Under the pieces are notes generated by a model. The model was not told the origin of the DNA, did not search any database, and saw only the letters and a list, made by a program, of their open reading frames with translations. A stretch of DNA of 44,339 nucleotides, taken from IMG/VR virus record IMGVR_UViG_2923286960_000001, one strand, 5' to 3'. The stretch's first letter is position 1. Each line of letters opens with the position of its first letter. This document shows positions 1,165 to 41,924 of the stretch, piece after piece. Source of the DNA: a virus. Taxonomy: Duplodnaviria; Heunggongvirae; Uroviricota; Caudoviricetes. A program made the translations under genes and the position numbers.

Positions 1165-1391
1165 TTTCTTTCCTCTGTTATGCCATCACCCGCGCTCACT
1201 TGGACAGTATGCAGCGGAGACTGAAGCGCCGCAATGCAAGCTTGCCGTGTTGTGAGGTAAGGAGATTTTGGCTTGGTTGGATCTTTACGTGTTGCCTGTA
1301 GGCGGCCTGTTCGTATCCAGTTGGTGGCGGTTGGTCTGGATATCTTAAGAAACTGACAGGCCTCATCGAGTGTGAGGCTGTATGGCTCCAT
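1020..1391 (-). CDS. xis: excisionase-family DNA-binding protein (recombination directionality factor)
   Basis: Start taken at internal Met ([34 protein letters not shown] excisionase-like) with GAGGTGA about 6 nt upstream; ATG overlaps the upstream stop (TAATG). The 3' 145 nt overlap the int start in another frame. Confidence 0.65.
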
Positions 1392-13247: not shown

Positions 13248-14330
13248 TTAGAACTGATAAACCAGACCTACAGCGACGATGTCGTCGGTATCAATACCAG
13301 CTGTTTTGGTAAACTTACTATCGTCAATTAAGTTGATTTTGTAATCAACAAAAGTAGACATGTTTTTATTAAAGTAGTAAGTAGCACCGACATCGACATA
13401 CTTGACTAAGTCTCGGTCACCATGAACACCAAGGTCTTTACCTTTTGACTGAAGGTAAGCAACAGATGGGCGCAGACCGAAGTCAAACTGATATTGTGCT
13501 ACTGCTTCAAAGTTTTGTGCTTTGTTTGCAATATGGTTATTACCAAAAACGGTCATATTCTGAGTTTCAGAATATGTGGTAGCCAGATAGATATTGTTCG
13601 CATCATATTTCAGGCCTGCAGCCCATACTTCCGCATTTTTGCCGGAGGCATTGAATTTGCTCTTACCATAGGCGACCTGACCGTCAGTGCGATCTGATTT
13701 AGCATAGGTTGCACCCACGCCGAATCCTTCATACTCATAAGTAGTGGAGAAACCGAAACCATCACCATTGGCTTCAGTTACGTCAGTGCGGTCATTTTTA
13801 CCCTGATACTGAGCAGCAAAGTTCAGGCCATCGACCAGACCAAAGAAGTCGTTGTTACGATAAGTTGCAACACCAGTAGTGCGACCAGTCATGAACACAT
13901 CTGTTTGGGTCCAGGTATCACCACCGAATTCTGGCAGAACGTCAGTCCACGCACCGATGTCGTATGCTACACCGTAGTTACGGCCGTAATCGATGGAGCC
14001 GTAATCACCAAATTTCAGGCCTGCAAATGCAAGACGGGTTTTGTCTTTGGAAGAACCTTGAGATTCAGCACGGTTGCCTTTGAATTCATATTCCCACTGA
14101 CCGAAACCAGTCAGTTGATCGTTGATTTGGGTTTCACCTTTGAAGCCAAGACGGGCATAAGTAGTATCACCATCATCTGCATCATTAGAGGAGAAGTAGT
14201 GCTTGGCATTAACTTTCCCGTATAGATCCAGCTTGTTACTGTCTTTATTATAAATTTCAGCTGCCTGAGCAGACATCGCCATCAGTACTGATGCAGCTAC
14301 AGCAGAAATTGCCACTGTTAATTTTTTCAT
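13248..14330 (-). CDS. nmpC: general porin (OmpC/OmpF/NmpC family) moron
   Basis: Start at [23 protein letters not shown] signal peptide; beta-barrel composition; C-terminal Phe (VYQF); AT-rich upstream region. Confidence 0.85.
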
Positions 14331-16089: not shown

Positions 16090-16120
16090 AGCTGCCCATA
16101 TCGATGGGCAACTCATGCAA

Positions 16121-16414
16121 TTATTGTGAGCAATACACACGCGCTTCCAGCGGAGTATAAATGCCTAAAGTAATAAAACCGAGAAATCCATTTACGAATG
16201 TTTGCTGGGTTTCTGTTTTAACAACATTTTCTGCGCCGCCACAAATTTTGGCTGCATCAACAGTTTTCTCCTGTCCAATTCCCGAAACGAAGAAATGATG
16301 GGTGATGGTTTCCTTTGGTGTTACTGCTGTCGGTTTGTTTCCAACAGTAAACGTCTGTTGAGCACATCCTGTAATAAGCATTGCCAGAGCGGCAGAAAAC
16401 AACATTTTTTTCAT
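16121..16414 (-). CDS. bor: Bor-family outer-membrane lipoprotein
   Basis: Start at MKKMLFSAALAMLITGC (lipobox); 97 aa. Confidence 0.85.
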   Translation of the reverse strand: MKKMLFSAALAMLITGCAQQTFTVGNKPTAVTPKETITHHFFVSGIGQEKTVDAAKICGGAENVVKTETQQTFVNGFLGFITLGIYTPLEARVYCSQ

Positions 16415-16774
16415 CTTATTATCCTGCATTGTTAAAAACGGCAGAATCCTATGTGACAACAATTAAACGATAGTTAAATGGATTGATGAAAATTAAAACT
16501 ATATAGGTGGATGCTCAGCCTATTGGAGGAGGGGGGGCACTCAGAATCCTGTGGAATGAAATAAACCGCTCTATCTGTCCATTACCCTTTTAGCTGCGCT
16601 GTATCGTCGCCGTATTCCCGCATTAACCATGACCGTAGCCCGACGGGGAATTCCTTCTGCGTGAGTGTACGGGAATAATCAAAAACGATGCACACCGGGT
16701 TTTACTGTGCTGACAGACGCAGGGTTACCCTCATAGTCGCTTTTCCGGTGCGATGGTGGAAGAAACCGGGATGT

Positions 16775-17877: not shown

Positions 17878-17903
<26 letters not shown>
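17358..17903 (+). CDS. nu1: terminase small subunit Nu1
   Basis: 181-aa translation matches lambda Nu1 essentially throughout, from memory. Confidence 0.95.
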
Positions 17904-21585
<3,682 letters not shown>

Positions 21586-21605
<20 letters not shown>

Positions 21606-22905
21606 TCTCCCGCATATTGCCAGCATGGCCTTTAATGAGCCGCTGATGCTTGAACCCGCCTATGCGCGGGTTTTCTTTTGTGCGCTTGCAGGCCAGCTTG
21701 GGATCAGCCGCCTGACGGATGCGGTGTCCGGCGACAGCCTGACTGCCGGAGAGGCACCCGCGACGCTGGCGTTAGTCGGTGATGGTGACGGACCACGACA
21801 GGCCCGCAGTTATCAGGTCATGAACGGCATCGCCGTGCTGCCGGTGTCCGGTACGCTGGTCAGCCGGACGCGGGCGCTGCAGCCTTATTCGGGGATGACC
21901 GGTTACAACGGCATTATCGCCCGTCTGCAACAGGCTGCCAGTGACCCGATGGTGGACGGCATTCTGCTCGATATGGACACGCCCGGCGGAATGGTGGCAG
22001 GGACATTTGACTGCGCTGACATCATCGCCCGTGTGCGTGACATAAAACCGGTATGGGCGCTGGCCAACGACATGAACTGCAGTGCAGGTCAGCTGCTTGC
22101 CAGCGCCGCCTCCCGGCGTCTGGTCACGCAGACCGCCCGGACAGGCTCCATCGGCGTCATGATGGCTCACAGTAATTACGGTGCTGCGCTGGAGAAACAG
22201 GGCGTGGAAATCACGCTGATTTACAGCGGCAGCCATAAGGTGGATGGCAACCCCTACAGCCATCTTCCGGATGACGTCCGGGAGACACTGCAGTCCCGGA
22301 TGGATGCAACCCGCCAGATGTTTGCGCAGAAGGTGTCGGCATATACCGGCCTGTCCGTGCAGGCTGTGCTGGATACCGAGGCTGCAGTGTACAGCGGTCA
22401 GGAGGCCATTGATGCCGGACTGGCTGATGAACTTGTTAACAGCACCGATGCGATCACCGTCATGCGTGATGCACTGGATGCACGTAAATCCCGTCTCTCA
22501 GGAGGGCGAATGACCAAAGAGACTCAATCAACAACTGTTTCAGCCACCGCTTCGCAGGCTGACGTTACTGACGTGGTGCAAGCGACGGAGGGCGAAAACG
22601 CCAGCGCGGCGCAGCCGGACGTGAACGCGCAGATCACCGCAGCGGTTGCGGCAGAAAACAGCCGCATTATGGGGATCCTCAACTGTGAGGAGGCTCACGG
22701 ACGCGAAGAACAGGCGCGCGTGCTGGCCGAAACCCCCGGAATGACCGTGGAAACGGCCCGCCACATTCTGGCCGCAGCACCACAGAGTGCACAGGCGCGC
22801 AGTGACACTGCGCTGGATCGTCTGATGCAGGGTGCACCGGCACCACTGGCTGCAGGTAACCCGGCATCTGATGCCGTTAACGATTTGCTGAACACACCAG
22901 TGTAA
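21586..22905 (+). CDS. C: capsid assembly protease C
   Basis: GTG start after GAGGAGGAG; 439 aa matching lambda gpC. Confidence 0.9.
22510..22905 (+). CDS. nu3: scaffolding protein Nu3 (in-frame internal start within C)
   Basis: ATG at 22510 after GGAGGG; 131 aa, same frame and stop as C. Confidence 0.8.
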   Translation: MTKETQSTTVSATASQADVTDVVQATEGENASAAQPDVNAQITAAVAAENSRIMGILNCEEAHGREEQARVLAETPGMTVETARHILAAAPQSAQARSDTALDRLMQGAPAPLAAGNPASDAVNDLLNTPV

Positions 22906-22914
22906 GGGATGTTT

Positions 22915-23247
22915 ATGACGAGCAAAGAAACCTTTACCCATTACCAGCCGCTGGGCAACAGTGACCCGGCTCATACCGCAACCGCGCCCGGCGGATTGAG
23001 TGCGAAAGCGCCTGCAATGACTCCGCTGATGCTTGACACCGCCACCCGTAAGCTGGTTGCGTGGGATGGCACCACCGACGGTGCTGCCGTTGGCATTCTG
23101 GCTGTTGCAGCTGACCAGACCAGCACCACGCTGACGTTCTACAAGTCCGGCACGTTCCGTTATGAGGATGTGCTCTGGCCGGAGGCTGCCAGCGACGAGA
23201 CGAAAAAACGGACCGCGTTTGCCGGAACGGCAATCAGCATCGTTTAA
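22915..23247 (+). CDS. D: head decoration protein D
   Basis: 110 aa from [12 protein letters not shown], lambda gpD-like. Confidence 0.95.
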
Positions 23248-23267
23248 CTTTACCCTTCATCACTAAA

Positions 23268-23289
23268 GGCCGCCTGTGCGGCTTTTTTT
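23268..23289 (+). terminator. terminator-like hairpin between D and E
   Basis: GCCGC-ctgt-GCGGC followed by TTTTTTT. Confidence 0.4.
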
Positions 23290-23302
23290 ACGGGATTTTT
23301 TT

Positions 23303-24328
23303 ATGTCGATGTACACAACCGCCCAGCTGCTGGCGGCAAATGAGCAGAAATTTAAGTTTGATCCGCTGTTTCTGCGTCTCTTTTTCCGTGAGAGCTATCC
23401 CTTCACCACGGAGAAAGTCTATCTCTCACAAATTCCGGGACTGGTAAACATGGCGCTGTACGTTTCGCCGATTGTTTCCGGTGAGGTTATCCGTTCCCGT
23501 GGCGGCTCCACCTCTGAATTTACGCCGGGATATGTCAAGCCGAAGCATGAGGTGAATCCGCAGATGACCCTGCGTCGCCTGCCGGATGAAGATCCGCAGA
23601 ATCTGGCGGACCCGGCTTACCGCCGCCGTCGCATCATCATGCAGAACATGCGTGACGAAGAGCTGGCCATTGCTCAGGTCGAAGAGATGCAGGCCGTTTC
23701 TGCCGTGCTTAAGGGCAAATACACCATGACCGGTGAAGCCTTCGATCCGGTTGAGGTGGATATGGGCCGCAGTGCGGCGAATAACATCACGCAGTCCGGC
23801 GGCACGGAGTGGAGCAAGCGTGACAAGTCCACGTATGACCCGACCGACGATATCGAAGCCTACGCGCTGAACGCCAGCGGTGTGGTGAATATCATCGTGT
23901 TTGATCCGAAAGGCTGGGCGCTGTTCCGTTCCTTCAAAGCCGTCAGGGAGAAGCTGGATACCCGTCGTGGCTCTCATTCCGAGCTGGAGACAGCGGTAAA
24001 AGACCTGGGTAAAGCGGTGTCCTATAAGGGTATGTATGGCGATGTTGCCATCGTCGTGTATTCCGGACAGTACGTGGAAAACGGCGTCAAAAAGAACTTC
24101 CTGCCGGACAACACGATGGTGCTGGGGAACACTCAGGCACGCGGTCTGCGCACCTATGGTTGTATTCAGGATGCGGACGCACAGCGCGAAGGCATTAACG
24201 CCTCTGCCCGTTACCCGAAAAACTGGGTGACCACCGGCGATCCGGCACGTGAGTTCACCATGATTCAGTCAGCACCGCTGATGCTGCTGGCTGACCCTGA
24301 TGAGTTCGTGTCCGTACAACTGGCGTAA
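23303..24328 (+). CDS. E: major capsid protein E
   Basis: 341 aa from MSMYTTAQLLAANEQ, lambda gpE-like. Confidence 0.95.
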   Translation: MSMYTTAQLLAANEQKFKFDPLFLRLFFRESYPFTTEKVYLSQIPGLVNMALYVSPIVSGEVIRSRGGSTSEFTPGYVKPKHEVNPQMTLRRLPDEDPQNLADPAYRRRRIIMQNMRDEELAIAQVEEMQAVSAVLKGKYTMTGEAFDPVEVDMGRSAANNITQSGGTEWSKRDKSTYDPTDDIEAYALNASGVVNIIVFDPKGWALFRSFKAVREKLDTRRGSHSELETAVKDLGKAVSYKGMYGDVAIVVYSGQYVENGVKKNFLPDNTMVLGNTQARGLRTYGCIQDADAQREGINASARYPKNWVTTGDPAREFTMIQSAPLMLLADPDEFVSVQLA

Positions 24329-24369
24329 TCATGGCCCTTCGGGGCCATTGTCTCTCTGTGGAGAAGTCC

Positions 24370-24768
24370 ATGACGAAAGATGAACTGATTGCCCGTCTCC
24401 GCTCGCTGGGTGAACAACTGAACCGTGATGTCAGCCTGACGGGGACGAAAGAAGAACTGGCGCTCCGTGTGGCAGAGCTGGAAGAGGAGCTTGATGACAC
24501 GGATGACACTGCCGGTCAGGACACCCCTCTCAGCCCGGAAAATGTGCTGACCGGGCATGAAAATGAGGTGGTATCAGCGCAGCCGGACACCGTGATTCAG
24601 GATACGGCTGAACTGGTCACGGTCGTGGCACTGGTGACGCTGCATACTGATGCACTTCACGCCACGCGGGATGAACCTGTGGCATTTGTGCTGCCGGGAA
24701 CGGCGTTTCGTGTCTCTGCCGGTGTGGCAGCCGAAATGACAGAGCGCGGCCTGGCCAGAATGCAATAA
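24370..24768 (+). CDS. FI: DNA packaging protein FI
   Basis: 132 aa from MTKDELIARLRSLGEQL. Confidence 0.9.
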   Translation: MTKDELIARLRSLGEQLNRDVSLTGTKEELALRVAELEEELDDTDDTAGQDTPLSPENVLTGHENEVVSAQPDTVIQDTAELVTVVALVTLHTDALHATRDEPVAFVLPGTAFRVSAGVAAEMTERGLARMQ

Positions 24769-24779
24769 CGGGAGGCGCT

Positions 24780-25133
24780 GTGGCTGATTTCGATAACCTG
24801 TTCGATGCTGCCATTGCCCGCGCCGATGAAACGATACGCGGGTACATGGGAACGTCAGCCACCATGACATCCGGTGAGCAGTCCGGTGCAGTGATACGTG
24901 GTGTTTTTGATGACCCTGAAAATATCAGCTATGCCGGACAGGGCGTGCGCGTTGAAGGCTCCAGCCCGTCCCTGTTTGTCCGGACTGATGAGGTGCGGCA
25001 ACTGCGGCGTGGAGACACGCTGACCATCGGTGAGGAAAACTTCTGGATAGATCGTGTTTCGCCGGATGATGGCGGAAGCTGTCATCTCTGGCTTGGGCGG
25101 GGCGTACCGCCTGCCGTTAACCGTCGCCGCTGA
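24780..25133 (+). CDS. FII: head-tail connector protein FII
   Basis: 117 aa, GTG start, MADFDNLFDAAIARADE. Confidence 0.9.
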   Translation: MADFDNLFDAAIARADETIRGYMGTSATMTSGEQSGAVIRGVFDDPENISYAGQGVRVEGSSPSLFVRTDEVRQLRRGDTLTIGEENFWIDRVSPDDGGSCHLWLGRGVPPAVNRRR

Positions 25134-25144
25134 AAGGGGGATGT

Positions 25145-25723
25145 ATGGCCATAAAAGGTCTTGAGCAGGCCGTTGAAAACCTCAGCCGTATCAGCAAAAC
25201 GGCGGTGCCTGGTGCCGCCGCAATGGCCATTAACCGCGTTGCTTCATCCGCGATATCGCAGTCTGCGTCACAGGTTGCCCGTGAGACAAAGGTACGCCGG
25301 AAACTGGTAAAGGAAAGGGCCAGGCTGAAAAGGGCCACGGTTAAAAATCCGCAGGCCAGAATCAAGGTTAACCGGGGGGATTTGCCCGTAATCAAGCTGG
25401 GTAATGCGCGGGTTGTCCTGTCCCGACGCAGGCGTCGTAAAAAGGGGCAGCGTTCATCCCTGAAAGGTGGCGGCAGCGTGCTTGTGGTGGGAAACCGTCG
25501 TATTCCCGGCGCGTTTATTCAGCAACTGAAAAATGGCCGGTGGCATGTCATGCAGCGTGTGGCCGGGAAAAACCGTTACCCCATTGATGTGGTGAAAATC
25601 CCGATGGCGGTGCCACTGACCACGGCGTTTAAACAGAATATTGAACGGATACGGCGTGAGCGTCTTCCGAAAGAGCTGGGCTATGCGCTGCAGCATCAAC
25701 TGAGAATGGTAATAAAGCGATGA
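25145..25723 (+). CDS. Z: tail completion protein Z
   Basis: 192 aa, lambda gpZ-like. Confidence 0.9.
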   Translation: MAIKGLEQAVENLSRISKTAVPGAAAMAINRVASSAISQSASQVARETKVRRKLVKERARLKRATVKNPQARIKVNRGDLPVIKLGNARVVLSRRRRRKKGQRSSLKGGGSVLVVGNRRIPGAFIQQLKNGRWHVMQRVAGKNRYPIDVVKIPMAVPLTTAFKQNIERIRRERLPKELGYALQHQLRMVIKR

Positions 25724-26115
25724 AACATACTGAACTCCGTGCAGCCGTACTGGATGCACTGGAGAAGCATGACACCGGGGCGACGCTTTTTGATGGTCGC
25801 CCCGCTGTTTTTGATGAGGCGGATTTTCCGGCAATTGCCGTTTATCTCACCGGCGCTGAATACACGGGCGAAGAGCTGGACAGCGATACCTGGCAGGCGG
25901 AGCTGCATATTGAAGTTTTCCTGCCTGCTCAGGTGCCGGATTCAGAGCTGGATTCGTGGATGGAGTCCCGGATTTATCCGGTGATGAGCGATATCCCGGC
26001 ACTGTCAGATTTGATCACCAGTATGGTGGCCAGTGGCTATGACTACCGGCGCGACGATGATGCGGGCCTGTGGAGTTCAGCCGATCTGACTTATGTCATT
26101 ACCTATGAAATGTGA
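25720..26115 (+). CDS. U: tail terminator protein U
   Basis: 131 aa, lambda gpU-like; ATGA overlap with Z. Confidence 0.9.
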
Positions 26116-26196
26116 GGACGATATGCCTGTACCAAATCCAGCAATACCGGTGAAAGGTGCCGGGACCACACTGTGGGTTTATAAGGGGAACGGTGA

Positions 26197-26204
26197 CCCT
26201 TATG
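26197..26204. repeat. target-site duplication CCCTTATG, left copy
   Basis: Identical 8-mer immediately outside both IS ends. Confidence 0.85.
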
Positions 26205-26257
26205 GTAACCGGCTCATTTAGACCGTCTGGTCTGTTTCCTCCGGCTCTACAAAAATA

Positions 26258-26935
26258 ATGTCCATCATTTTTAATGGACACTATCGTATGAAACACCGGA
26301 CCTGGATCACTGAAGCTTTACGTCTTCACTTTGAAGAACATTTACCCCGGGTTGTGGCCGGGCGTCGCCTGGGTGTACCAAAATCAACAGTTTGTAGTAT
26401 GTTCGTGCGCTTTCGGAGAGCTGGCCTTTCGTGGCCTTTGCCCGCAGGCATGTCGGAGCAGGAACTTGATGCCTGCCTTTACGGACAATTTTCCACGGTA
26501 CCAGTCGTACGTCCTGAAAGCACCGTTATATCCGAAGCCCCCGTGGTAAAAAAACGTCCCCGGCGGCCCAACTTCCCTTATGAGTTTAAAATCGCCTTAG
26601 TGGAGCAGTCACTGCAGCCCGGAGCCTGTGTGGCGCAGATCGCCCGGGAAAACGGAATCAACGATAACCTGCTCTTCAACTGGCGCCATCAATACCGGAA
26701 AGGTGGCCTGCTGCCTTCCGGAAAAAATATGCCGGCACTGCTTCCCGTGACGTTAACGCCGGAGCCGGATAATAAAATCCCGGCCCCCGCACAGGAACCA
26801 GAGCAGATAAATACACCGTCCGACAGTCTGTGTTGTGAGCTGGTTCTGCCGGCCGGAACTCTCAGGCTTAAAGGTAAACTGACGCCGGCGTTATTACAGA
26901 CACTTATCCGCGAAATAAAAGGGAGCAGCCACTGA
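26258..26935 (+). CDS. IS66-family accessory protein (orf1/TnpA-like); start uncertain
   Basis: First ORF inside the IS; stop overlaps the orf2 start (TGATG); alternative start at 26288. Confidence 0.6.
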   Translation: MSIIFNGHYRMKHRTWITEALRLHFEEHLPRVVAGRRLGVPKSTVCSMFVRFRRAGLSWPLPAGMSEQELDACLYGQFSTVPVVRPESTVISEAPVVKKRPRRPNFPYEFKIALVEQSLQPGACVAQIARENGINDNLLFNWRHQYRKGGLLPSGKNMPALLPVTLTPEPDNKIPAPAQEPEQINTPSDSLCCELVLPAGTLRLKGKLTPALLQTLIREIKGSSH

Positions 26936-27282
26936 TGATATCTCTCCCTGCAGGTTCGCGTATCTGGCTGGTTGCAGGTATCACCGATATGCGAAATGGC
27001 TTTAACGGCCTGGCATCAAAAGTTCAGAACGTCCTGAAGGATGACCCGTTCTCCGGACACCTGTTCATCTTCCGCGGACGCCGGGGTGACCAGATAAAAG
27101 TGTTGTGGGCTGACAGTGACGGACTGTGCCTCTTCACCAAACGCCTGGAGCGGGGCCGCTTCGTCTGGCCAGTCACCCGTGACGGCAAGGTGCACCTTAC
27201 TCCGGCTCAGTTATCCATGCTTCTTGAAGGTATCAACTGGAAGCACCCGAAACGAACGGAACGCGCTGGAATCCGCATATAA
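26935..27282 (+). CDS. IS66-family Orf2 (TnpB-like) protein
   Basis: 115 aa, MISLPAGSRIWLVAGITDMRNGFNGLA, recalled IS66 Orf2 signature. Confidence 0.85.
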   Translation: MISLPAGSRIWLVAGITDMRNGFNGLASKVQNVLKDDPFSGHLFIFRGRRGDQIKVLWADSDGLCLFTKRLERGRFVWPVTRDGKVHLTPAQLSMLLEGINWKHPKRTERAGIRI

Positions 27283-27301
27283 CCCGTTGTAAAGTGAGGA
27301 T

Positions 27302-28873
27302 ATGGACACCTCACTTGCTCATGAGAACGCCCGCCTGCGGGCACTGTTGCAGACGCAACAGGACACCATCCGCCAGATGGCTGAATACAACCGTCTGCTC
27401 TCACAGCGGGTGGCGGCTTATGCTTCCGAAATCAACCGGCTGAAGGCGCTGGTTGCGAAACTGCAACGTATGCAGTTCGGTAAAAGCTCAGAAAAACTTC
27501 GTGCAAAAACCGAACGGCAGATACAGGAAGCACAGGAGCGAATCAGCGCACTTCAGGAAGAAATGGCGGAAACGCTGGGTGAGCAATATGACCCGGTACT
27601 GCCATCCGCCCTGCGCCAGTCTTCAGCCCGTAAACCGTTACCGGCCTCACTTCCCCGTGAAACCCGGGTTATCCGGCCGGAAGAGGAATGCTGTCCTGCC
27701 TGTGGTGGTGAACTCAGTTCTCTGGGATGTGATGTGTCAGAGCAACTGGAGCTTATCAGCAGCGCCTTTAAGGTTATCGAAACACAACGTCCGAAACAGG
27801 CCTGTTGCCGGTGCGACCATATCGTGCAGGCACCAGTACCTTCAAAACCCATTGCACGCAGTTATGCCGGAGCGGGGCTTCTGGCCCATGTTGTCACCGG
27901 GAAATATGCAGACCATCTGCCGTTATACCGCCAGTCAGAAATATACCGTCGTCAGGGAGTGGAGCTGAGCCGTGCCACACTGGGGCGCTGGACAGGTGCT
28001 GTTGCTGAACTGCTGGAGCCGCTGTATGACGTCCTGCGCCAGTATGTGCTGATGCCCGGTAAAGTCCATGCTGATGATATCCCCGTCCCGGTCCAGGAGC
28101 CGGGCAGCGGTAAAACCCGGACAGCCCGGCTGTGGGTCTACGTCCGTGATGACCGTAACGCCGGTTCACAGATGCCCCCGGCGGTCTGGTTCGCGTACAG
28201 TCCGGACCGGAAAGGTATCCATCCACAAAATCACCTGGCCGGTTACAGCGGTGTGCTTCAGGCCGATGCTTACGGTGGTTACCGGGCGTTATACGAATCC
28301 GGCAGAATAACGGAAGCCGCGTGTATGGCTCATGCCCGGAGAAAAATCCACGATGTGCATGCAAGAGCGCCCACCTACATCACCACGGAAGCCCTGCAGC
28401 GTATCGGTGAACTGTATGCCATCGAGGCAGAGGTCCGGGGCTGTTCAGCAGAACAGCGTCTGGCGGCAAGAAAAGCCAGAGCCGCGCCACTGATGCAGTC
28501 ACTGTATGACTGGATACAGCAACAGATGAAAACACTGTCGCGTCACTCAGATACGGCAAAAGCGTTCGCATACCTGCTGAAACAGTGGGATGCACTGAAC
28601 GTGTACTGCAGTAATGGCTGGGTGGAAATCGACAACAACATCGCAGAGAACGCCTTACGGGGAGTGGCCGTAGGCCGGAAAAACTGGATGTTCGCGGGTT
28701 CCGACAGCGGTGGTGAACATGCGGCGGTGTTGTACTCGCTGATCGGCACATGCCGTCTGAACAATGTGGAGCCAGAAAAGTGGCTGCGTTACGTCATTGA
28801 ACATATCCAGGACTGGCCGGCAAACCGGGTACGCGATCTGTTGCCCTGGAAAGTTGATCTGAGCTCTCAGTAA
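27302..28873 (+). CDS. IS66-family transposase (TnpC)
   Basis: 523 aa; N-terminal coiled coil, CxxC ... CxxC zinc-finger-like pairs, large catalytic core. Confidence 0.85.
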
Positions 28874-28903
28874 ATATCAATACGGTTCTGACGAGTCGCT
28901 TAC

Positions 28904-28911
28904 CCCTTATG
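28904..28911. repeat. target-site duplication CCCTTATG, right copy
   Basis: Identical 8-mer immediately outside both IS ends. Confidence 0.85.
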
Positions 28912-29585
28912 CGAACCCGCTTTCAGACGTTGACTGGTCGCGTCTGGCAAAAGTTAAAGACCTGACGCCCGGCGAACTGACCGCTGAGTCCTATGACGAC
29001 AGTTATCTCGATGATGAGGATGCGGACTGGACTGCGACCGGGCAGGGGCAGAAATCAGCCGGAGATACCAGCTTCACGCTGGCGTGGATGCCCGGAGAGC
29101 AGGGGCAGCAGGCGCTGCTGGCGTGGTTTAATGAAGGTGATACCCGTGCCTATAAAATCCGCTTCCCGAACGGCACGGTCGATGTGTTCCGTGGCTGGGT
29201 CAGCAGTATCGGTAAAGCGGTGACGGCGAAGGAAGTGATCACCCGCACGGTGAAGGTCACCAATGTGGGACGCCCGTCGATGGCAGAAGATCGCAGCACG
29301 GTAACAGCGGCCACCGGCATGACCGTGACGCCTGCCAGCACTTCGGTGGTGAAAGGGCAGAGCACCACGCTGACCGTGGCCTTCCAGCCGGAAGGCGCAA
29401 CCGACAAGAGCTTCCGTGCGGTGTCAGCGGATAAAACAAAAGCCACCGTGTCGGTCAGTGGTATGACCATCACCGTGAACGGCGTTGCTGCAGGCAAGGT
29501 CAACATTCCGGTTGTATCCGGTAATGGTGAGTTTGCTGCGGTTGCAGAAATCACCGTCACCGCCAGTTAATCCGGAGAGTCAGCG

Positions 29586-30008
29586 ATGTTCCTGAAAACA
29601 GAATCATTTGAACATAACGGCGTGACCGTCACGCTTTCTGAACTGTCAGCCCTGCAGCGTATTGAGCATCTTGCCTGGTTGAAAGAGCAGGAAAAAAAGG
29701 CTGAATCCAGCGGCAACCTGCAGGTGTCTGTAGAGGATCTTATCAGAGGCGGGGCGTTTCTGGTGGCGATGTCTCTGTGGCATAACCATCCGCAGAAGAC
29801 AAAGCTGCCGTCCATGAATGAAGCCATTACGCAGATTGAGCAGGAAGTGCTTACCACCTGGCCCACGGAGGCAATTGCTCAGGCTGAAAACGTGGTGTTA
29901 CGTCTGTCCGGAATGTCTGAGTTTGTGGTGAATAATGCCCCTGAACAGGCAGATGACGCCGGGCCTGCAGAGCCTGTTTCTGCGGGAAAGTGTTCGACGG
30001 TGAGCTGA
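29586..30008 (+). CDS. G: tail assembly chaperone G
   Basis: 140 aa from MFLKTESFEHNGVTVTLSEL. Confidence 0.9.
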   Translation: MFLKTESFEHNGVTVTLSELSALQRIEHLAWLKEQEKKAESSGNLQVSVEDLIRGGAFLVAMSLWHNHPQKTKLPSMNEAITQIEQEVLTTWPTEAIAQAENVVLRLSGMSEFVVNNAPEQADDAGPAEPVSAGKCSTVS

Positions 30009-30424
30009 GTTTTGCCCTGAAACTGGCGCGTGAGATGGGGCGACCCGACTGGCGCGCCATGCTTGCCGGGATGTCATCCACGGAGTATGCCGACTGGCAC
30101 CGCTTTTACAGTACCCATTATTTTCATGATGTTCTGCTGGATATGCACTTTTCCGGGCTGACGTACACCGTACTCAGCCTGTTTTTCAGCGATCCGGATA
30201 TGCATCCGCTGGATTTCAGTCTGCTGAACCGGTGTGAGGCTGACGAAGAGCCTGAAGATGATGTGCTGATGCAGAAAGCGGCAGGGCTTGCCGGAGGCGT
30301 CCGCTTTGACCCGGACGGGAATGAAGTTATCCCCGCTTCCCCGGATGTGACGGGCATGACGGAGGATGACGTAATGCTGATGACAGTATCAGAAGGGATC
30401 GCAGGAGGAGTCCGGTATGGCTGA
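29586..30424 (+). CDS. T: tail assembly chaperone GT fusion made by -1 programmed frameshift
   Basis: T-frame ORF 29990-30424 has no independent start and overlaps the G 3' end in the -1 frame; slippery heptamer GGGAAAG at 29984-29990. Confidence 0.8.
29984..29990 (+). promoter_or_regulatory. -1 programmed ribosomal frameshift slippery site (G GGA AAG)
   Basis: Heptamer sits in the G/T overlap, as in lambda. Confidence 0.75.
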
Positions 30425-32979
30425 ACCGGTAGGCGATCTGGTCGTTGATTTAAGTCTGGATGCGGCCAGATTTGACGAGCAGATGGCCAGAGTCAGGCGT
30501 CATTTTTCCGGTACGGAAAGTGATGCGAAAAAAACAGCGGCAGTCGTTGAACAGTCAATGAACCGGCAGGCGCTGGCTGCACAGAAAGCGGGGATTTCCG
30601 TCGGGCAGTATAAAGCTGCCATGCGTATGCTGCCTGCGCAGTTCACTGACGTGGCCACGCAGCTTGCAGGGGGGGCAGAATCCGTGGCTCATCCTGCTGC
30701 AACAGGGTGGTCAGGTGAAGGACTCCTTCGGCGGAATGATCCCCATGTTCAGGGGGCTTGCCGGTGCGATCACCCTGCCGATGGTCGGGGCCACCTCGCT
30801 GGCGGTGGCGACCGGTGCGCTGGCGTATGCCTGGTATCAGGGCAACTCAACCCTGTCCGATTTCAACAAAACGCTGGTCCTTTCCGGCAATCAGTCGGGT
30901 CTGACGGCAGATCGCATGCTGGTCCTGTCCAGAGCCGGGCAGGCGGCAGGGCTGACGTTTAACCAGACCAGCGAGTCACTCAGCGCACTGGTTAAGGCGG
31001 GAGTAAGCGGTGAGGCTCAGATTGCGTCCATCAGCCAGAGTGTGGCGCGTTTCTCCTCTGCATCCGGTGTGGAGGTGGACAGGGTCGCTGAAGCCTTCGG
31101 GAAGCTGACCACAGACCCGACGTCGGGGTTGACGGCGATGGCACGCCAGTTCCATAACGTGACGGCGGAGCAGATTGCGTATGTTGCTCAGTTGCAGCGT
31201 TCCGGCGATGAAGCCGGGGCATTGCAGGCGGCGAACGAGGCCGCGACGAAAGGGTTTGATGACCAGACCCGCCGCCTGAAAGAGAACATGGGTACGCTGG
31301 AGACCTGGGCAGACAGGACCGCGCGGGCATTCAAATCCATGTGGGATGCGGTGCTGGATATTGGTCGTCCTGATACCGCGCAGGAGATGCTGATTAAGGC
31401 AGAGGCTGCGTTTAAGAAAGCGGACGACATCTGGAGTCTGCGCAAGGATGATTATTTTGTTAACGATGAAGCGCGGGCGCGTTACTGGGATGATCGTGAA
31501 AAGGCCCGTCTTGCGCTTGAAGCCGCGAGAAAGAAGGCTGAACAGCAGAGTCAACAGGACACAAATGCGCAGCAGCAGAGCGATACTGAAGCGTCACGGC
31601 TGAAATATACCGAAGAGGCGCAGAAGGCTTACGAACGGCTGCAGACGCCGCTGGAGAAATATACCGCCCGTCAGGAAGAACTGAACAAGGCACTGAAGGA
31701 CGGGAAAATTCTGCAGGCAGATTACAACACGCTGATGGCGGCGGCGAAAAAGGACTATGAAGCGACGCTGAAAAAGCCGAAACAGTCCGGCGTGAAGGTG
31801 TCTGCGGGCGATCGTCAGGAAGACAGTGCTCATGCTGCCCTGCTGACGCTTCAGGCTGAACTCCGGACGCTGGAGAAGTATGCCGGAGCAAATGAGAAAA
31901 TCAGCCAGCAGCGCCGGGATTTGTGGAAGGCGGAGAGTCAGTTCGCGGTACTGGAGGAGGCGGCGCAACGTCGCCAGCTGTCTGCACAGGAGAAATCCCT
32001 GCTGGCGCATAAAGATGAGACGCTGGAGTACAAACGCCAGCTGGCTGCACTTGGCGACAAGGTTACGTATCAGGAGCGCCTGAACGCGCTGGCGCAGCAG
32101 GCGGATAAATTCGCACAGCAGCAACGGGCAAAACGGACCGCCATTGATGCGAAAAGCCGGGGGCTGACTGACCGGCAGGCAGCGCGGGAAGCCACAGAAC
32201 AGCGCCTGAAGGAACAGTATGGCGATAATCCTCTGGCGCTGAATAACGTCATGTCAGAGCAGAAAAAGACCTGGGCGGCTGAAGACCAGCTTCGCGGGAG
32301 CTGGATGGCAGGCCTGAAGTCCGGCTGGAGTGAGTGGGAAGAGAGCGCCACGGACAGTATGTCGCAGGTTAAAAGTGCAGCCGCGCAGACCTTTGATGGT
32401 ATTGCGCAGAATATGGCGGCGATGCTGACCGGCAGTGAGCAGAACTGGCGCAGCTTCACCCGTTCCGTGCTGTCCATGATGACAGAAATTCTGCTTAAGC
32501 AGGCAATGGTGGGGATTGTCGGGAGTATCGGCAGCGCCATTGGCGGGGCTGTTGGTGGCGGCGCATCCGCGTCAGGCGGTACAGCCATTCAGGCCGCTGC
32601 GGCGAAATTCCATTTTGCAACCGGAGGATTTACGGGAACCGGCGGCAAATATGAGCCAGCGGGGATTGTTCACCGTGGTGAATTTGTCTTCACAAAGGAG
32701 GCAACCAGCCGGATTGGCGTGGGGAATCTTTACCGGCTGATGCGCGGCTATGCCACCGGCGGTTATGTCGGTACACCGGGCAGCATGGCAGACAGCCGGT
32801 CGCAGGCGTCCGGGACGTTTGAGCAGAATAACCATGTGGTGATTAACAACGACGGCACGAACGGGCAGATAGGTCCGGCTGCTCTGAAGGCAGTGTATGA
32901 CATGGCCCGCAAGGGTGCCCGTGATGAAATCCAGGCACAGATGCGCGATGGTGGTCTGTTCTCCGGAGGTGGACGATGA
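30417..32979 (+). pseudogene. H: tape measure protein H, split by a +1 frameshift in a G7 run (30669-30675)
   Basis: First ORF (30417-30962) matches H for about 82 aa then diverges; second ORF (30664-32979) continues H (QNPWLILLQQGGQVKD...) in the +1 frame; removing one G joins them. Confidence 0.85.
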
Positions 32980-38840: not shown

Positions 38841-38863
38841 TTGCAGAAAAGCGAGAGGTAATT

Positions 38864-39463
38864 ATGCGTAAACTTTATGCCGCCATTTTGTCCGCAGCCA
38901 TTTGTCTGGCCGTATCCGGTGCGCCTGCATGGGCATCTGAACATCAGTTCACGCTGAGCGCGGGGTATCTTCATGCCCGGACCAACGTTCCCGGCAGTGA
39001 TGATCTGAACGGGATTAACGTGAAATACCGTTATGAGTTTACGGATACGCTGGGGCTGGTGACGTCATTCAGCTATGCAGGAGACAAGAATCGCCAGCTG
39101 ACCCGTTACAGCGATACCCGCTGGCATGAAGATTCCGTGCGTAACCGCTGGTTCAGCGTGATGGCGGGGCCGTCTGTGCGCGTGAATGAATGGTTCAGCG
39201 CGTATGCGATGGCGGGTATGGCTTACAGCCGTGTTTCGACTTTTTCCGGGGATTACCTTCGCGTAACTGACAACAAGGGGAAAACGCACGATGTGCTGAC
39301 CGGAAGTGATGACGGTCGCCACAGCAACACGTCTCTGGCGTGGGGGGCTGGCGTGCAGTTTAACCCGACCGAATCCGTGGCCATTGATATTGCTTATGAA
39401 GGCTCCGGCAGTGGTGACTGGCGCACTGACGGTTTCATCGTGGGTGTCGGTTATAAATTCTGA
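38864..39463 (+). CDS. lom: Lom/Ail-family outer-membrane beta-barrel protein
   Basis: 199 aa, signal peptide, C-terminal GVGYKF. Confidence 0.9.
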   Translation: MRKLYAAILSAAICLAVSGAPAWASEHQFTLSAGYLHARTNVPGSDDLNGINVKYRYEFTDTLGLVTSFSYAGDKNRQLTRYSDTRWHEDSVRNRWFSVMAGPSVRVNEWFSAYAMAGMAYSRVSTFSGDYLRVTDNKGKTHDVLTGSDDGRHSNTSLAWGAGVQFNPTESVAIDIAYEGSGSGDWRTDGFIVGVGYKF

Positions 39464-39527: not shown

Positions 39528-41924
39528 ATGGCAGTAAAGATTTCAGGTGTACTGAAAGACGGCACAGGAAAACCGGTACAGAACTGCTCAATCCAGCTGA
39601 AAGCAAAACGTAACAGCACCACGGTTGTGGTAAACACGGTGGCCTCAGAAAATCCGGATGAAGCCGGGCGTTACAGTATGGATGTTGAGTATGGCCAGTA
39701 CAGCGTTATCCTGCTGGTTGAAGGTTTTCCGCCTTCACATGCCGGGACCATCACCGTGTATGAAGATTCTAAGCCGGGGACGCTGAATGATTTTCTCGGT
39801 GCCATGACGGAAGATGATGTCATGCCGGAGGCATTGCGTCGTTTTGAGGAAATGGTGGAAGAAGCGGCACGCAACGCTGAAGCCGCCTCTCAGAGCGCAG
39901 CGGCGGCAAAGAAATCCGAAACTGCAGCGGCATCATCGAAGAACGCGGCGAAAACCTCAGAAACGAATGCAGCTAATAGTGCACAGGCGGCAGCGACCTC
40001 AAAGACTGCATCGGCAAACTCCGCGACAGCAGCCAAAAAATCAGAAACCAACGCGAAAAATAGCGAGACAGCCGCAAAGACGAGCGAAACCAACGCAAAG
40101 TCCAGCCAGACGGCAGCGAAAACCAGCGAAACGAATGCCAAAGCCAGTGAAACTGCGGCAAAAAACAGCCAGGTTGCAGCAGCCCAAAGCGAGAGCGCGG
40201 CAGCCGGTTCTGCGACTTCAGCAGCTGGATCAGCAACTGCTGCGGCTAACAGCCAGAAAGCTGCGAAGACGAGTGAAACTAACGCAAAGTCCAGCCAGAC
40301 GGCAGCGAAGACCAGCGAAACGAATGCCAAAGCCAGCGAAACTGCGGCGAAAAACAGTCAGGATGCAGCAGCCCAAAGCGAGAGTGCTGCAGCTGGTTCT
40401 GCAAGCGCGGCGGCTGCTTCTGCCACTGCATCAGCCAACAGTCAAAAAGCAGCAAAAACCAGTGAAACCAATGCAAAGACAAGCGAGACTGCAGCGGCGA
40501 ACTCGGCGAAAGCATCGGCAGCAAGCCAGACAGCAGCTAAAGCAAGTGAAGACGCAGCCAGAGAGTATGCAAGTCAGGCAGCAGAGCCGTATAAATATGT
40601 CTTACAGCCACTGCCTGATGTGTGGATACCGTTTAACGATTCACTGGATATGATTACGGGCTTTTCGCCGTCATATAAAAAAATTGTTATTGGTGATGAT
40701 GAAATAACGATGCCTGGCGACAAGGTTGTTAAGTTTAAACGCGCATCAACTGCCACATATATCAATAAATCAGGCGTATTTAGTGTTGCTAAAATTGATG
40801 AGCCACGATTTGAAAAAGAAGGTTTATTGATTGAAGGACAGCGCACTAACTATTTTGTTAAATCCAATACTCCCGCTGAATGGACGAGTACCAGCAATAT
40901 CGATAAAACTAATAATGGTGTTGATGAATTTGGTTTTTCATATGCCAAAATGCGAACAAAAGATAATATGACAGGACAATCATCTGCACTTAGTCTGCAT
41001 ACATGCAGTGCATCCCGGGGGATTGATGTTAGTGGCGATAATAAGTATTGCACTGTTTCATGCAGGGTTAAAGCTCCTGATGGTCTTCGTTGTCGTTTGC
41101 GTTTTGAAAAATACGATGGGTCGGTTTATACATTTTTAGGAGATGCTTATTTAACTTTCGGAACTCTGATAATAGAAAAAACTGGCGGGGCAGCCAATAG
41201 AATAGCAGCTACTGCAACTAAAGATCCGGTTACAGGGTGGATTTTCTATGAGGCAACTATAGAAGCTGTTGAAGGTGAAACCTTAATTGGCGCAATGATT
41301 CAGTATGCGCCGAAAAAAGGTGGTATAACTGAAGCGGGAGATTATATTTACCTTGCAACACCACAATTTGAAAACGGCGGATGTGCTTCATCTTTTGTTA
41401 TTACGACAACTGCACCCGCAACCCGCTCCAGTGATATGGTGACGATCCCAACTGAAAATAATATCTATAATAGACCGCTTACGTGTCTTGTCGAGGTTAA
41501 TAGAAATTGGGGCGATATTCCTCCTAATGTAGCACCGCGTATTTTTGATTTTTCTGGTGTGCCACCTATTGAGTCAATTACATACGCTTTTAACACAACT
41601 GAGAAATATTACGGTCAGCTTTATATGCAAACTTATAAAGCGTCGACAAGTACTTACGTTTCTAGTGTGTTTGCTGGTCGAACTGATGTTCGAAAATTCA
41701 TTGGTGGTTTTAATATTTATTCTGATGGTACTAAACGAGTAGTTTCTAACGGTGAGGCTACTAAAACTATGAAAACGGAGTGGACGGGCGTAAAAACACG
41801 GACCTTTATTCGAATTGGAGGTCAAGCCACATCGGGAACTCGTCATCTATTCGGCCATTTGAGAAATCTTCGTCTCTGGCATAAAGAATTAACTGATGCG
41901 CAAATGGGGGAGAGTATTAAATGA
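39528..41924 (+). CDS. stf: side tail fibre protein with internal tandem repeats and a divergent low-GC C-terminal domain
   Basis: N-terminal about 120 aa lambda Stf-like; central Ala/Ser/Thr-rich shaft with KTSETNAK repeats; C-terminal about 440 aa encoded by AT-rich DNA. Confidence 0.85.
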   Translation: MAVKISGVLKDGTGKPVQNCSIQLKAKRNSTTVVVNTVASENPDEAGRYSMDVEYGQYSVILLVEGFPPSHAGTITVYEDSKPGTLNDFLGAMTEDDVMPEALRRFEEMVEEAARNAEAASQSAAAAKKSETAAASSKNAAKTSETNAANSAQAAATSKTASANSATAAKKSETNAKNSETAAKTSETNAKSSQTAAKTSETNAKASETAAKNSQVAAAQSESAAAGSATSAAGSATAAANSQKAAKTSETNAKSSQTAAKTSETNAKASETAAKNSQDAAAQSESAAAGSASAAAASATASANSQKAAKTSETNAKTSETAAANSAKASAASQTAAKASEDAAREYASQAAEPYKYVLQPLPDVWIPFNDSLDMITGFSPSYKKIVIGDDEITMPGDKVVKFKRASTATYINKSGVFSVAKIDEPRFEKEGLLIEGQRTNYFVKSNTPAEWTSTSNIDKTNNGVDEFGFSYAKMRTKDNMTGQSSALSLHTCSASRGIDVSGDNKYCTVSCRVKAPDGLRCRLRFEKYDGSVYTFLGDAYLTFGTLIIEKTGGAANRIAATATKDPVTGWIFYEATIEAVEGETLIGAMIQYAPKKGGITEAGDYIYLATPQFENGGCASSFVITTTAPATRSSDMVTIPTENNIYNRPLTCLVEVNRNWGDIPPNVAPRIFDFSGVPPIESITYAFNTTEKYYGQLYMQTYKASTSTYVSSVFAGRTDVRKFIGGFNIYSDGTKRVVSNGEATKTMKTEWTGVKTRTFIRIGGQATSGTRHLFGHLRNLRLWHKELTDAQMGESIK
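40077..40454 (+). repeat. 2 x 189-bp in-frame tandem repeat within stf
   Basis: Unit at 40077 repeats at 40266 with few substitutions; nested 27-bp sub-repeats. Confidence 0.75.

Follow-up and report, generated by a model that had tools for sequence, protein, structure and literature searches.

A probable ISCro1 copy in the major tail gene V of an argU-site lambdoid prophage from the E. coli NCTC 86 lineage

ISCro1, an element of the IS66 family, is usually described as having no marked target specificity. IS679, an IS66 member of E. coli that has been studied by experiment, shares the gene order tnpA-tnpB-tnpC with the element reported here and is approximately 95% identical to it at the nucleotide level over element positions 414-2699 (the match being labelled "IS679 family transposase"). 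Due to the first ~413 bp, i.e., the left end together with the 5' portion of tnpA, being unmatched at the megablast level, IS679 is regarded as a sister element and thus as a different IS. ISEc8, an IS66-family element that Stx prophages in E. coli O157 frequently carry, is likewise found inside lambdoid prophages, but its similarity is just ~71% identity and is confined to part of tnpC. The element itself is assigned to ISCro1, which received its name in C. rodentium (PMC3072379) and is published with a length of 2699 bp and a duplication of the target site (TSD) of 8 bp (PMC12115866). ISCro1, named in C. rodentium ICC168 and widespread on chromosomes and plasmids of E. coli, Shigella, and Salmonella, agrees with our element in its length and termini, in its set of three genes, and in duplicating 8 bp.

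The cryptic prophage DLP12 of E. coli K-12 occupies the tRNA-Arg gene argU, followed by intD and, on the far side, by ompT, envY, and nfrA. The window, by which we mean the whole analyzed stretch of 44,339 nt, represents a lambdoid prophage at this same argU/DLP12 site (tRNA-Arg, intD ... ompT) and carries the same PGAP gene names quuD, essD, rrrD, rzpD, and nohD. DLP12 has entirely lost the head and tail genes considered here. In contrast, the prophage of the window has kept a complete set of head and tail genes with three point-like lesions. E. coli NCTC 86 and the window share 99.97% identity, with 9 SNPs in 44 kb. For comparison, four public assemblies were used, namely three separately produced assemblies of NCTC 86 and one of strain B-2207. 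That the window is NCTC 86 itself was rejected, since each of the three NCTC 86 assemblies differs from it at the same 9 positions, whereas B-2207 is closer.

One of the three lesions lies in gene V, and a full-length, apparently functional ISCro1 has, judging from the sequence, very probably transposed into codon 27/28 of this gene in the NCTC 86 lineage. Coordinates of all features are compiled in Table 1. The extent of the element as proposed by the sequence-only reading, together with its three ORFs, holds to the base, and its ends are imperfect inverted repeats beginning with GTAA, as had been claimed. Assignment to the IS66 family, proposed there as well, agrees with the Pfam and NCBIfam matches of TnpA, TnpB, and TnpC, which all lie far above the curated cut-offs; the three ORFs are intact, including the transposase ORFs for which this had been asserted. 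Further Pfam domains of tnpC are the leucine-zipper LZ_Tnp_IS66, the zinc-finger zf-IS66, and the C-terminal DDE_Tnp_IS66_C, and the start of tnpB overlaps the tnpA stop (TGATG). The element thus combines the traits of its family: tnpA-tnpB-tnpC in a row, GTAA-led imperfect terminal repeats of about 20-30 bp, and an 8-bp duplication.

Table 1. Positions of the inserted element, the gene V fragments, further lesions, and octamers used in both orientations, numbered along the window
Feature	Position	Strand	Remarks
ISCro1 (IS66 family)	26205..28903	+	2699 bp; orientation same as phage late operon
TSD, left copy	26197..26204		8 bp, CCCTTATG
TSD, right copy	28904..28911		8 bp, CCCTTATG
Left terminal inverted repeat	26205..26230	+	starts GTAACCGGCTCATTTAGACCGT; inner limit approximate
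Right terminal inverted repeat	28878..28903	-	reverse complement starts GTAAGCGACTCGTCAGAACCGT; inner limit approximate
tnpA	26258..26935	+	225 aa, accessory helix-turn-helix protein; NCBIfam IS66_access_TnpA 1.1e-88; Pfam HTH_Tnp_1
tnpB	26935..27282	+	115 aa, IS66 accessory protein (Orf2); Pfam TnpB_IS66 4.7e-40; NCBIfam IS66_TnpB 5.2e-38
tnpC	27302..28873	+	523 aa, DDE transposase; Pfam DDE_Tnp_IS66 2.5e-103; NCBIfam transpos_IS66 2.4e-143
Gene V (major tail, tail tube), 5' fragment	26123..26221	+	32-aa ORF = codons 1-27 + 5 IS-encoded codons, then stop
Gene V, 3' fragment	28904..29570	+	codon 26 to stop
Terminase large-subunit gene	17878..19804	+	+1 frameshift (G6 run vs G5) at ~19118; frame analysis and alignment to intact homologue of strain 1504D004
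Tail tape-measure gene	30417..32979	+	+1 frameshift in G7 run at ~30671; comparison with intact homologues
Two-orientation octamer GTTTGATC	23363		in E
Two-orientation octamer GCATCAAC	25700		at Z/U
Two-orientation octamer GTACCAAA	26136		in V codons 3-5

Compared with the ISCro1 copies named by PGAP in many E. coli genomes, the element shows 1 mismatch, a private synonymous SNP in tnpC at 27394 (T). Since this single nucleotide difference is synonymous, its proteins are identical to WP_001339397.1, WP_000624622.1, and WP_000381395.1. Membership in ISCro1 is a probable assignment that leans on the PGAP naming and on the published length and TSD size. A TnpC search of genome contigs yielded 38 loci, none of them from C. 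rodentium, and the nearest Citrobacter copy (Citrobacter sp. ANG330) has 94.8% nucleotide identity. Of 5426 E. coli genomes, 1492 contain at least 80% of the element, as do 1399 plasmid records. In the NCTC 86 assemblies, 5-8 places each match ISCro1, i.e., the element is multi-copy in this lineage. A second chromosomal copy of NCTC 86 is identical in 2699 of 2699 positions, which may be taken as a sign of recent activity of the element. Together with the intact ORFs and the many independent insertions in different strains, it may indirectly point to transposition activity.

Both copies of CCCTTATG directly adjoin the element ends, so that the perfect duplication described in the sequence-only reading is real; a random match of two flanking octamers has a probability of 4^-8 (~1.5e-5). 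A further 22 loci with ISCro1 insertions, located in other genomes or at other sites, show the same termini, and 21 of them have a perfect 8-bp duplication. The exception is a tandem-IS locus (L009), which is also the only mapped insertion with a differing left terminus. By analogy to other IS66-family elements and DDE transposases, TnpC together with TnpA and TnpB would bind the GTAA-terminated inverted repeats, the transposase would join these ends to target DNA cleaved with a stagger of 8 bp, and repair of the gaps would give rise to the CCCTTATG duplication.

Within V the duplicated octamer runs from the third position of codon 25 to the first position of codon 28, and hence the earlier placement of the split after codon 27 is right. 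PGAP labels the 5' part as "phage tail protein, incomplete, missing C-terminus" and the 3' part correspondingly as "...missing N-terminus"; the first in-frame start codon of the latter is that of M87 at 29088. Due to the truncation of gpV to a 32-aa peptide and a 3' fragment without a start before Met87, a tail tube presumably cannot form from the interrupted gene. In-silico excision of the IS together with one TSD copy results in a perfect V frame of 246 aa, 242 of which are identical in lambda gpV (PDB 6p3e). The restored protein contains an N-terminal tube domain (Phage_TTP_12, PF16461, 2.7e-70) and a C-terminal Big_2 domain (PF02368, 4.2e-20), and the neighbors of the gene are annotated as U and gpG, matching the placement of a lambda gpV-type gene between U and G. 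The sequence left after this excision aligns without a break to the uninterrupted U-V region of 3523 E. coli genomes (best 99.4%). Matches to it are also present in 99 phage records, among them lambda J02459 at 97.1%. A scan of positions 25900-29700 detected no sigma-70-like sites and no terminator-like sites on the + strand, from which nothing firm can be said about polarity over G-T-H.

Both insertion junctions are 100% identical over 140 bp each in LR217818, LT601384, OZ489144, and CP117959. The sequence-only reading had raised an assembly chimera as the possibility that would overturn it, in which the IS, as a repeat, was mis-joined into V and the real gene is intact. The multiple ISCro1 copies per NCTC 86 assembly mentioned above are a classic source of such mis-joins. 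However, the perfect 8-bp duplication coincides precisely with the ends of the IS, thousands of genomes with an empty site have the two flanks joined contiguously, which is the signature of simple transposition, and, since both junctions recur in the three NCTC 86 assemblies and in B-2207, the insertion stands, leaving to an artefact a practically negligible probability. As the insertion is common to these four assemblies and the source of the window, it predates the split of the lineage. The claim that it is recent thus stands insofar as nothing in the element has decayed, but the event is older than the separation of NCTC 86, B-2207, and the source of the window.

Two further lesions of the prophage, in the terminase large-subunit gene and in the tape-measure gene, are present in all four assemblies and flagged "frameshifted" by PGAP. 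Sequencing errors common to all are in principle conceivable in these G runs, but the four assemblies stem from different projects and show the same frameshifts. As both genes are frameshifted besides V, the prophage is, on sequence grounds, multiply defective and may be regarded as a decaying element partway to a remnant such as DLP12 in K-12. This also bears on the expectation that no infectious particles are formed unless V is complemented. V is indeed broken, but as the genes for the large terminase subunit and for the tape measure are frameshifted as well, supplying V by itself is not expected to rescue the phage, and the "unless" was too optimistic. For the same reason, a reversible switch of tail production, in which precise excision of the IS restores V, is very improbable. 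The perfect frame obtained by deleting the IS and one TSD copy is compatible with such a switch, but the two frameshifts would still block particle formation, and the empty site is absent from every assembly of the lineage compared (three of NCTC 86, and B-2207). Moreover, precise excision of IS elements is a rare and transposase-independent process.

The insertion into V in the NCTC 86 lineage is already annotated in RefSeq as two V pseudogene fragments flanking ISCro1. In the paper on the NCTC 86 genome, supplements included, 10 prophages are mentioned, but the V insertion is not. As a textbook IS hit in a prophage gene, the insertion itself is of small weight. Its modest value lies in showing, cleanly and at a datable stage, how a prophage decays in the line of descent of Escherich's original strain, with one IS hit and two frameshifts and heading for a DLP12-like remnant. 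A side observation concerning target preference could outweigh it.

Among 5426 complete E. coli genomes, 50 carry ISCro1 within ~2.6 kb of the Z-U-V-G segment.

For the insertion into V, a neutral hit in dispensable DNA is the preferred reading. An alternative, to which we give an even chance, is that it was selected or actively targeted, with ISCro1 favoring certain sites in lambda-like late operons. In that case, the event in NCTC 86 would exemplify a general interaction between IS and prophage. ISCro1 is co-oriented with the late operon in 29 genomes and reversed in 21. Of 17 distinct co-oriented events, 7 fall at the U/V junction within a stretch of 153 bp (simulation p ~1e-5), three octamers (Table 1) were used in both orientations in different strains, and the GC content near insertion sites is under background (p = 2e-4). 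The duplicated octamers follow a weak, roughly palindromic consensus G-S-W-T-N-W-N-C in locally AT-richer DNA. Against targeting at the V site itself, CCCTTATG was used in the NCTC 86 lineage only and fits this consensus poorly, being the sole site with C at position 3. Against selection, a V knock-out gives the host no protection from lysis, so that a benefit is not obvious. Furthermore, a uniform distribution would lead to 8-16 co-oriented cases at the 7-kb scale (a rough figure based on a guessed ~6000 full-length copies) versus the 29 genomes, which are non-independent, and hence there is no strong enrichment at this scale. The sample was moreover drawn with a query centered on the V locus, and the reverse-orientation events are partly mapped.

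Apart from the origin of the V insertion, for which we keep to a neutral hit, the clustering at U/V and the octamers hit in both orientations suggest an undescribed target preference. We lean slightly towards precise ISCro1 insertion hotspots in the lambda-like late operon, consisting of ~150 bp at the U/V junction and at least three octamers hit independently, in both orientations, and in unrelated strains. Literature searches turned up no publication that describes hotspots of IS66 or ISCro1 in phage tail genes. If the hotspots are real, they would imply an unrecognised determinant of target selection, be it the sequence combined with local structure or a bound factor from host or phage, and ISCro1 would recurrently inactivate lambdoid genes for tail and head. 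Preferred octamers would likewise provide access to the question of how IS66-family transposases choose their targets, which is poorly understood, and help to explain the repeated disabling of E. coli prophages.

An apparent bias in orientation proved to be an artefact of the query design, which had selected for co-orientation; a query with the reversed IS found 21 genomes as compared to 29. Low GC alone was rejected as the cause of the hotspots, since several sites lie at median GC and the exact reuse of octamers would not be explained by it.

The octamer CCCTTATG abuts both ends of the element, at 26197-26204 and 28904-28911 (25900-29300 read, pieces extracted by script), and has a single further copy elsewhere in the 44-kb window, at 26575. 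The probability of a chance match of the two end-abutting octamers is about 1.5e-5. The element comprises 2699 bp (26205-28903), starts with GTAACCGGCTCATTTAGACCGT, ends with the reverse complement of GTAAGCGACTCGTCAGAACCGT, carries GTAA-terminated inverted repeats and intact tnpA, tnpB, and tnpC genes (see the table), and is flanked by the 8-bp duplication. The sequence-only reading of a 2699-bp IS66 element with an 8-bp duplication and three ORFs, splitting V after codon 27, matches the sequence exactly. Judging from DDE transposases and IS66-family elements, TnpC together with TnpA and TnpB would cut the target with a stagger of 8 bp and link it to the ends of the IS, in a cut-and-paste or a copy-out-paste-in mode, and gap repair after joining would generate the duplication.

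All three IS products exceed the curated Pfam and NCBIfam thresholds by far. The first is an IS66 TnpA (1.1e-88, Pfam/NCBIfam profiles), the second an IS66 TnpB (4.7e-40 and 5.2e-38 in Pfam and NCBIfam, respectively), and the third an IS66 DDE transposase (DDE_Tnp_IS66, 2.5e-103; transpos_IS66, 2.4e-143) with additional matches to leucine-zipper, zinc-finger, and C-terminal domains. Matches covering at least 80% of the element were found in 1492 out of 5426 complete E. coli genomes, the best matches differing in 1 base and labelled "IS66-like element ISCro1 family" by PGAP, and in 1399 plasmid records, chiefly of Escherichia, Shigella, Salmonella, and Klebsiella. Judged by the PGAP-annotated copies, together with the published length and duplication size, the element is in all likelihood the known IS ISCro1. 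The name ISCro1 originates from Citrobacter rodentium ICC168, where the element is present in 24 copies (PMC3072379), and "a 2699 bp ISCro1" generating an 8-bp duplication was described in 2025 (PMC12115866). Among its relatives, IS679 is approximately 95% identical across element positions 414-2699, and ISEc8 is approximately 71% identical in part of tnpC only.

V starts at 26123, and the duplication comprises codons 26 and 27 plus the last base of codon 25 and the first of codon 28. Translation of the 5' part of V continues into the IS and terminates after 32 aa; in the 3' part the reading frame is open from 28863, with Met87 at 29088 as the earliest in-frame start codon. In silico deletion of the element and one octamer yields a 246-aa ORF with Phage_TTP_12 (2.7e-70) and Big_2 domains (Pfam), of which 242 out of 246 residues are identical to the lambda tail tube protein gpV (PDB 6p3e). 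The resulting 869-bp empty site aligns as a single piece in 3523 E. coli genomes (best 99.4%) and matches 99 phage records as well, including lambda J02459 8832-9700 at 97.1%.

The entire window represents a lambdoid prophage that adjoins tRNA-Arg (argU) and intD, with ompT/envY/nfrA on the opposite side. It occupies the same chromosomal site as DLP12, but retains all of the head and tail genes. The window shares 99.97% identity with E. coli NCTC 86 (LR217818, LT601384, OZ489144) and B-2207 (CP117959). Nine SNP positions, the same for each of the three NCTC 86 assemblies, set it apart from them (5423, 20010, 20325, 27394, 30031, 31082, 31879, 36875, and 38573). B-2207 has seven of the nine window alleles; those at 27394 and 31082 occur in the window alone. 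It thus stems from a close relative of NCTC 86 and not from one of these records. Probes of 140 bp across both junctions gave 100% identity only in these four assemblies, all with the same duplication. Therefore an assembly chimera, the alternative that according to the sequence-only reading would be revealed by reads spanning an uninterrupted V, is excluded for practical purposes and the insertion stands. At 16530, the window and the four assemblies have G homopolymers of unequal length (0 to 3 extra G), a sign of either assembly noise or hypervariability of this tract, which is situated upstream of the late genes. RefSeq already shows V as two pseudogene fragments with tnpA, tnpB, and the ISCro1 transposase gene between them; the insertion in V goes unmentioned in the NCTC 86 genome paper. 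Since the IS, the kind of place, and the annotation were already known, the insertion itself is an ordinary finding.

Compared to the common ISCro1 sequence, the window copy carries one synonymous change (Arg31 of TnpC, at 27394). A second ISCro1 of NCTC 86 (locus L029, LR217818 245112-247810), situated within or abutting a Tn7-like (TnsB-type) transposase gene, is identical to the NCTC 86 V copy in 2699/2699 positions and has its own duplication, AGAAGAAG, which argues for recent activity of the element in this lineage. The presumed recent insertion into V is indeed undecayed, but not demonstrably new, since it is common to NCTC 86, B-2207, and the source of the window.

Given what lambda V is established to do, tail tubes should fail to assemble without gpV. 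Frame analysis revealed that the reading frames of the terminase large-subunit and tape-measure genes are likewise broken by +1 frameshifts. Both lesions occur at the same positions in all four related assemblies, where PGAP flags the genes as "frameshifted". Due to these frameshifts and the V insertion the prophage is multiply defective. Consequently, V complementation alone should not rescue the prophage, contrary to the proviso "unless V is complemented". With these two corrections, concerning newness and the sole lesion, the earlier interpretation is supported and its underlying observation confirmed. A scan of the IS for terminator-like sites on the + strand found none, and transcription of G-T-H-... 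may continue past it.

The PGAP annotation further includes truncated genes for tail-fibre assembly and, at ~1320-1390 (-) beside intact intD, what is left (66 bp) of an excisionase-like helix-turn-helix gene. Cargo genes at ~13250-14330 (-), 16118-16411 (-), and ~38860-39460 (+) encode an OmpC-family porin, an Iss/Bor serum-survival lipoprotein, and a Lom/Ail-family outer-membrane protein, respectively, as named in the PGAP annotation of the matching NCTC 86 record. Within 40059-40496, where the tail-fibre genes are located, two segments of 249 bp overlap at an offset of 189 bp and are 83.5% identical; they form a repeat internal to the side tail fibre gene.

Using a 4.3-kb query (flanks and IS; at least 80% coverage), and hence a sample ascertained by a query centred on this locus, ISCro1 was observed in the lambda-like late operon region of 50 out of 5426 genomes. 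The IS is co-oriented with the late operon in 29 genomes and was found with the IS-reversed query in 21, which indicates no orientation bias. This recurrence concerns window 22750-26240 and loci L005-L028 and L068. In other strains 22 loci were mapped, with events de-replicated by site and orientation only.

Coordinates of element ORFs, frameshifted genes, and ISCro1 insertion events (window coordinates; insertions beyond 26204 counted with the IS and one duplication copy removed)
Feature	Position	Strand or orientation	Remarks
First ORF of element	26258-26935	+	
Second ORF of element	26935-27282	+	
Third ORF of element	27302-28873	+	
Terminase large-subunit gene, +1 frameshift	17878-19804, lesion ~19118		extra G, G6 (GGGGGG) vs G5 (GGGGG); intact homologue in strain 1504D004
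Tail tape-measure gene, +1 frameshift	30417-32979, lesion ~30671		extra base in G7 run; intact homologue in strain 1504D004
Insertion events (17)	22787, 23188, 23363, 23375, 24790, 24798, 25373, 25700, ~25860, 26081, 26103, 26123, 26136, 26183, 26204, 26233, ~27525	co-oriented	NCTC 86 event at 26204 included
Insertion events	23363, 25700, 25996, 26060, 26115, 26136	reversed	partial sample, in part picked by span
Octamer GTTTGATC	23363	both	co-oriented: H10407, DLI.6n; reversed: YZLc1-3
Octamer GCATCAAC	25700	both	co-oriented: RMDEC332; reversed: 21310
Octamer GTACCAAA	26136	both	co-oriented: c1-17; reversed: DP033, LSN03

Except for one tandem-IS locus, all mapped loci show a perfect 8-bp duplication. 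Seven of the 17 co-oriented events are concentrated at the U/V junction, in a stretch of 153 bp (simulation p ~1e-5, for a centred-query sample), and 16 are located at or upstream of 26233 (p = 3e-4). Three octamers were hit in both orientations in unrelated strains, and these hits must therefore be independent; the NCTC 86 octamer is not among the reused sites. The duplicated octamers display a weak palindromic tendency and a weak consensus G-S-W-T-N-W-N-C, with G at position 1 in 12, A/T at position 3 in 20, A/T at position 6 in 18, and C at position 8 in 10 out of 21. GC content within ±20 bp of the insertion sites is below background (p = 2e-4). ISCro1 may favour particular sites within lambda-like late operons, an apparent preference that is the only, and mildly, novel thread of this analysis; a literature search found no paper on such ISCro1 hotspots.

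In E. coli O103:H2 strain 129 (L009, AP038976; ~290-305), gene U contains two ISCro1 copies in head-to-tail arrangement. The second copy, from which the initial 5-6 nt are missing, directly adjoins the right end of the first (...CGCTTAC followed directly by GGCTCATTT...), and no target duplication is recognisable at this tandem, which could represent a tandem dimer or a junction-type intermediate. A contig search detected TnpC at 98-100% identity on L030, L032, L038, L041, and L050, contigs of assemblies that bear the labels Clostridiales MAG, Thauera, Streptococcus sanguinis, and Acinetobacter idrijaensis. L030, with a length of exactly 2699 bp, differs from the window's IS in 3 bases. Most likely the five contigs stem from contamination with E. 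coli or from collapsed repeats, and the labelled taxa are not true hosts.
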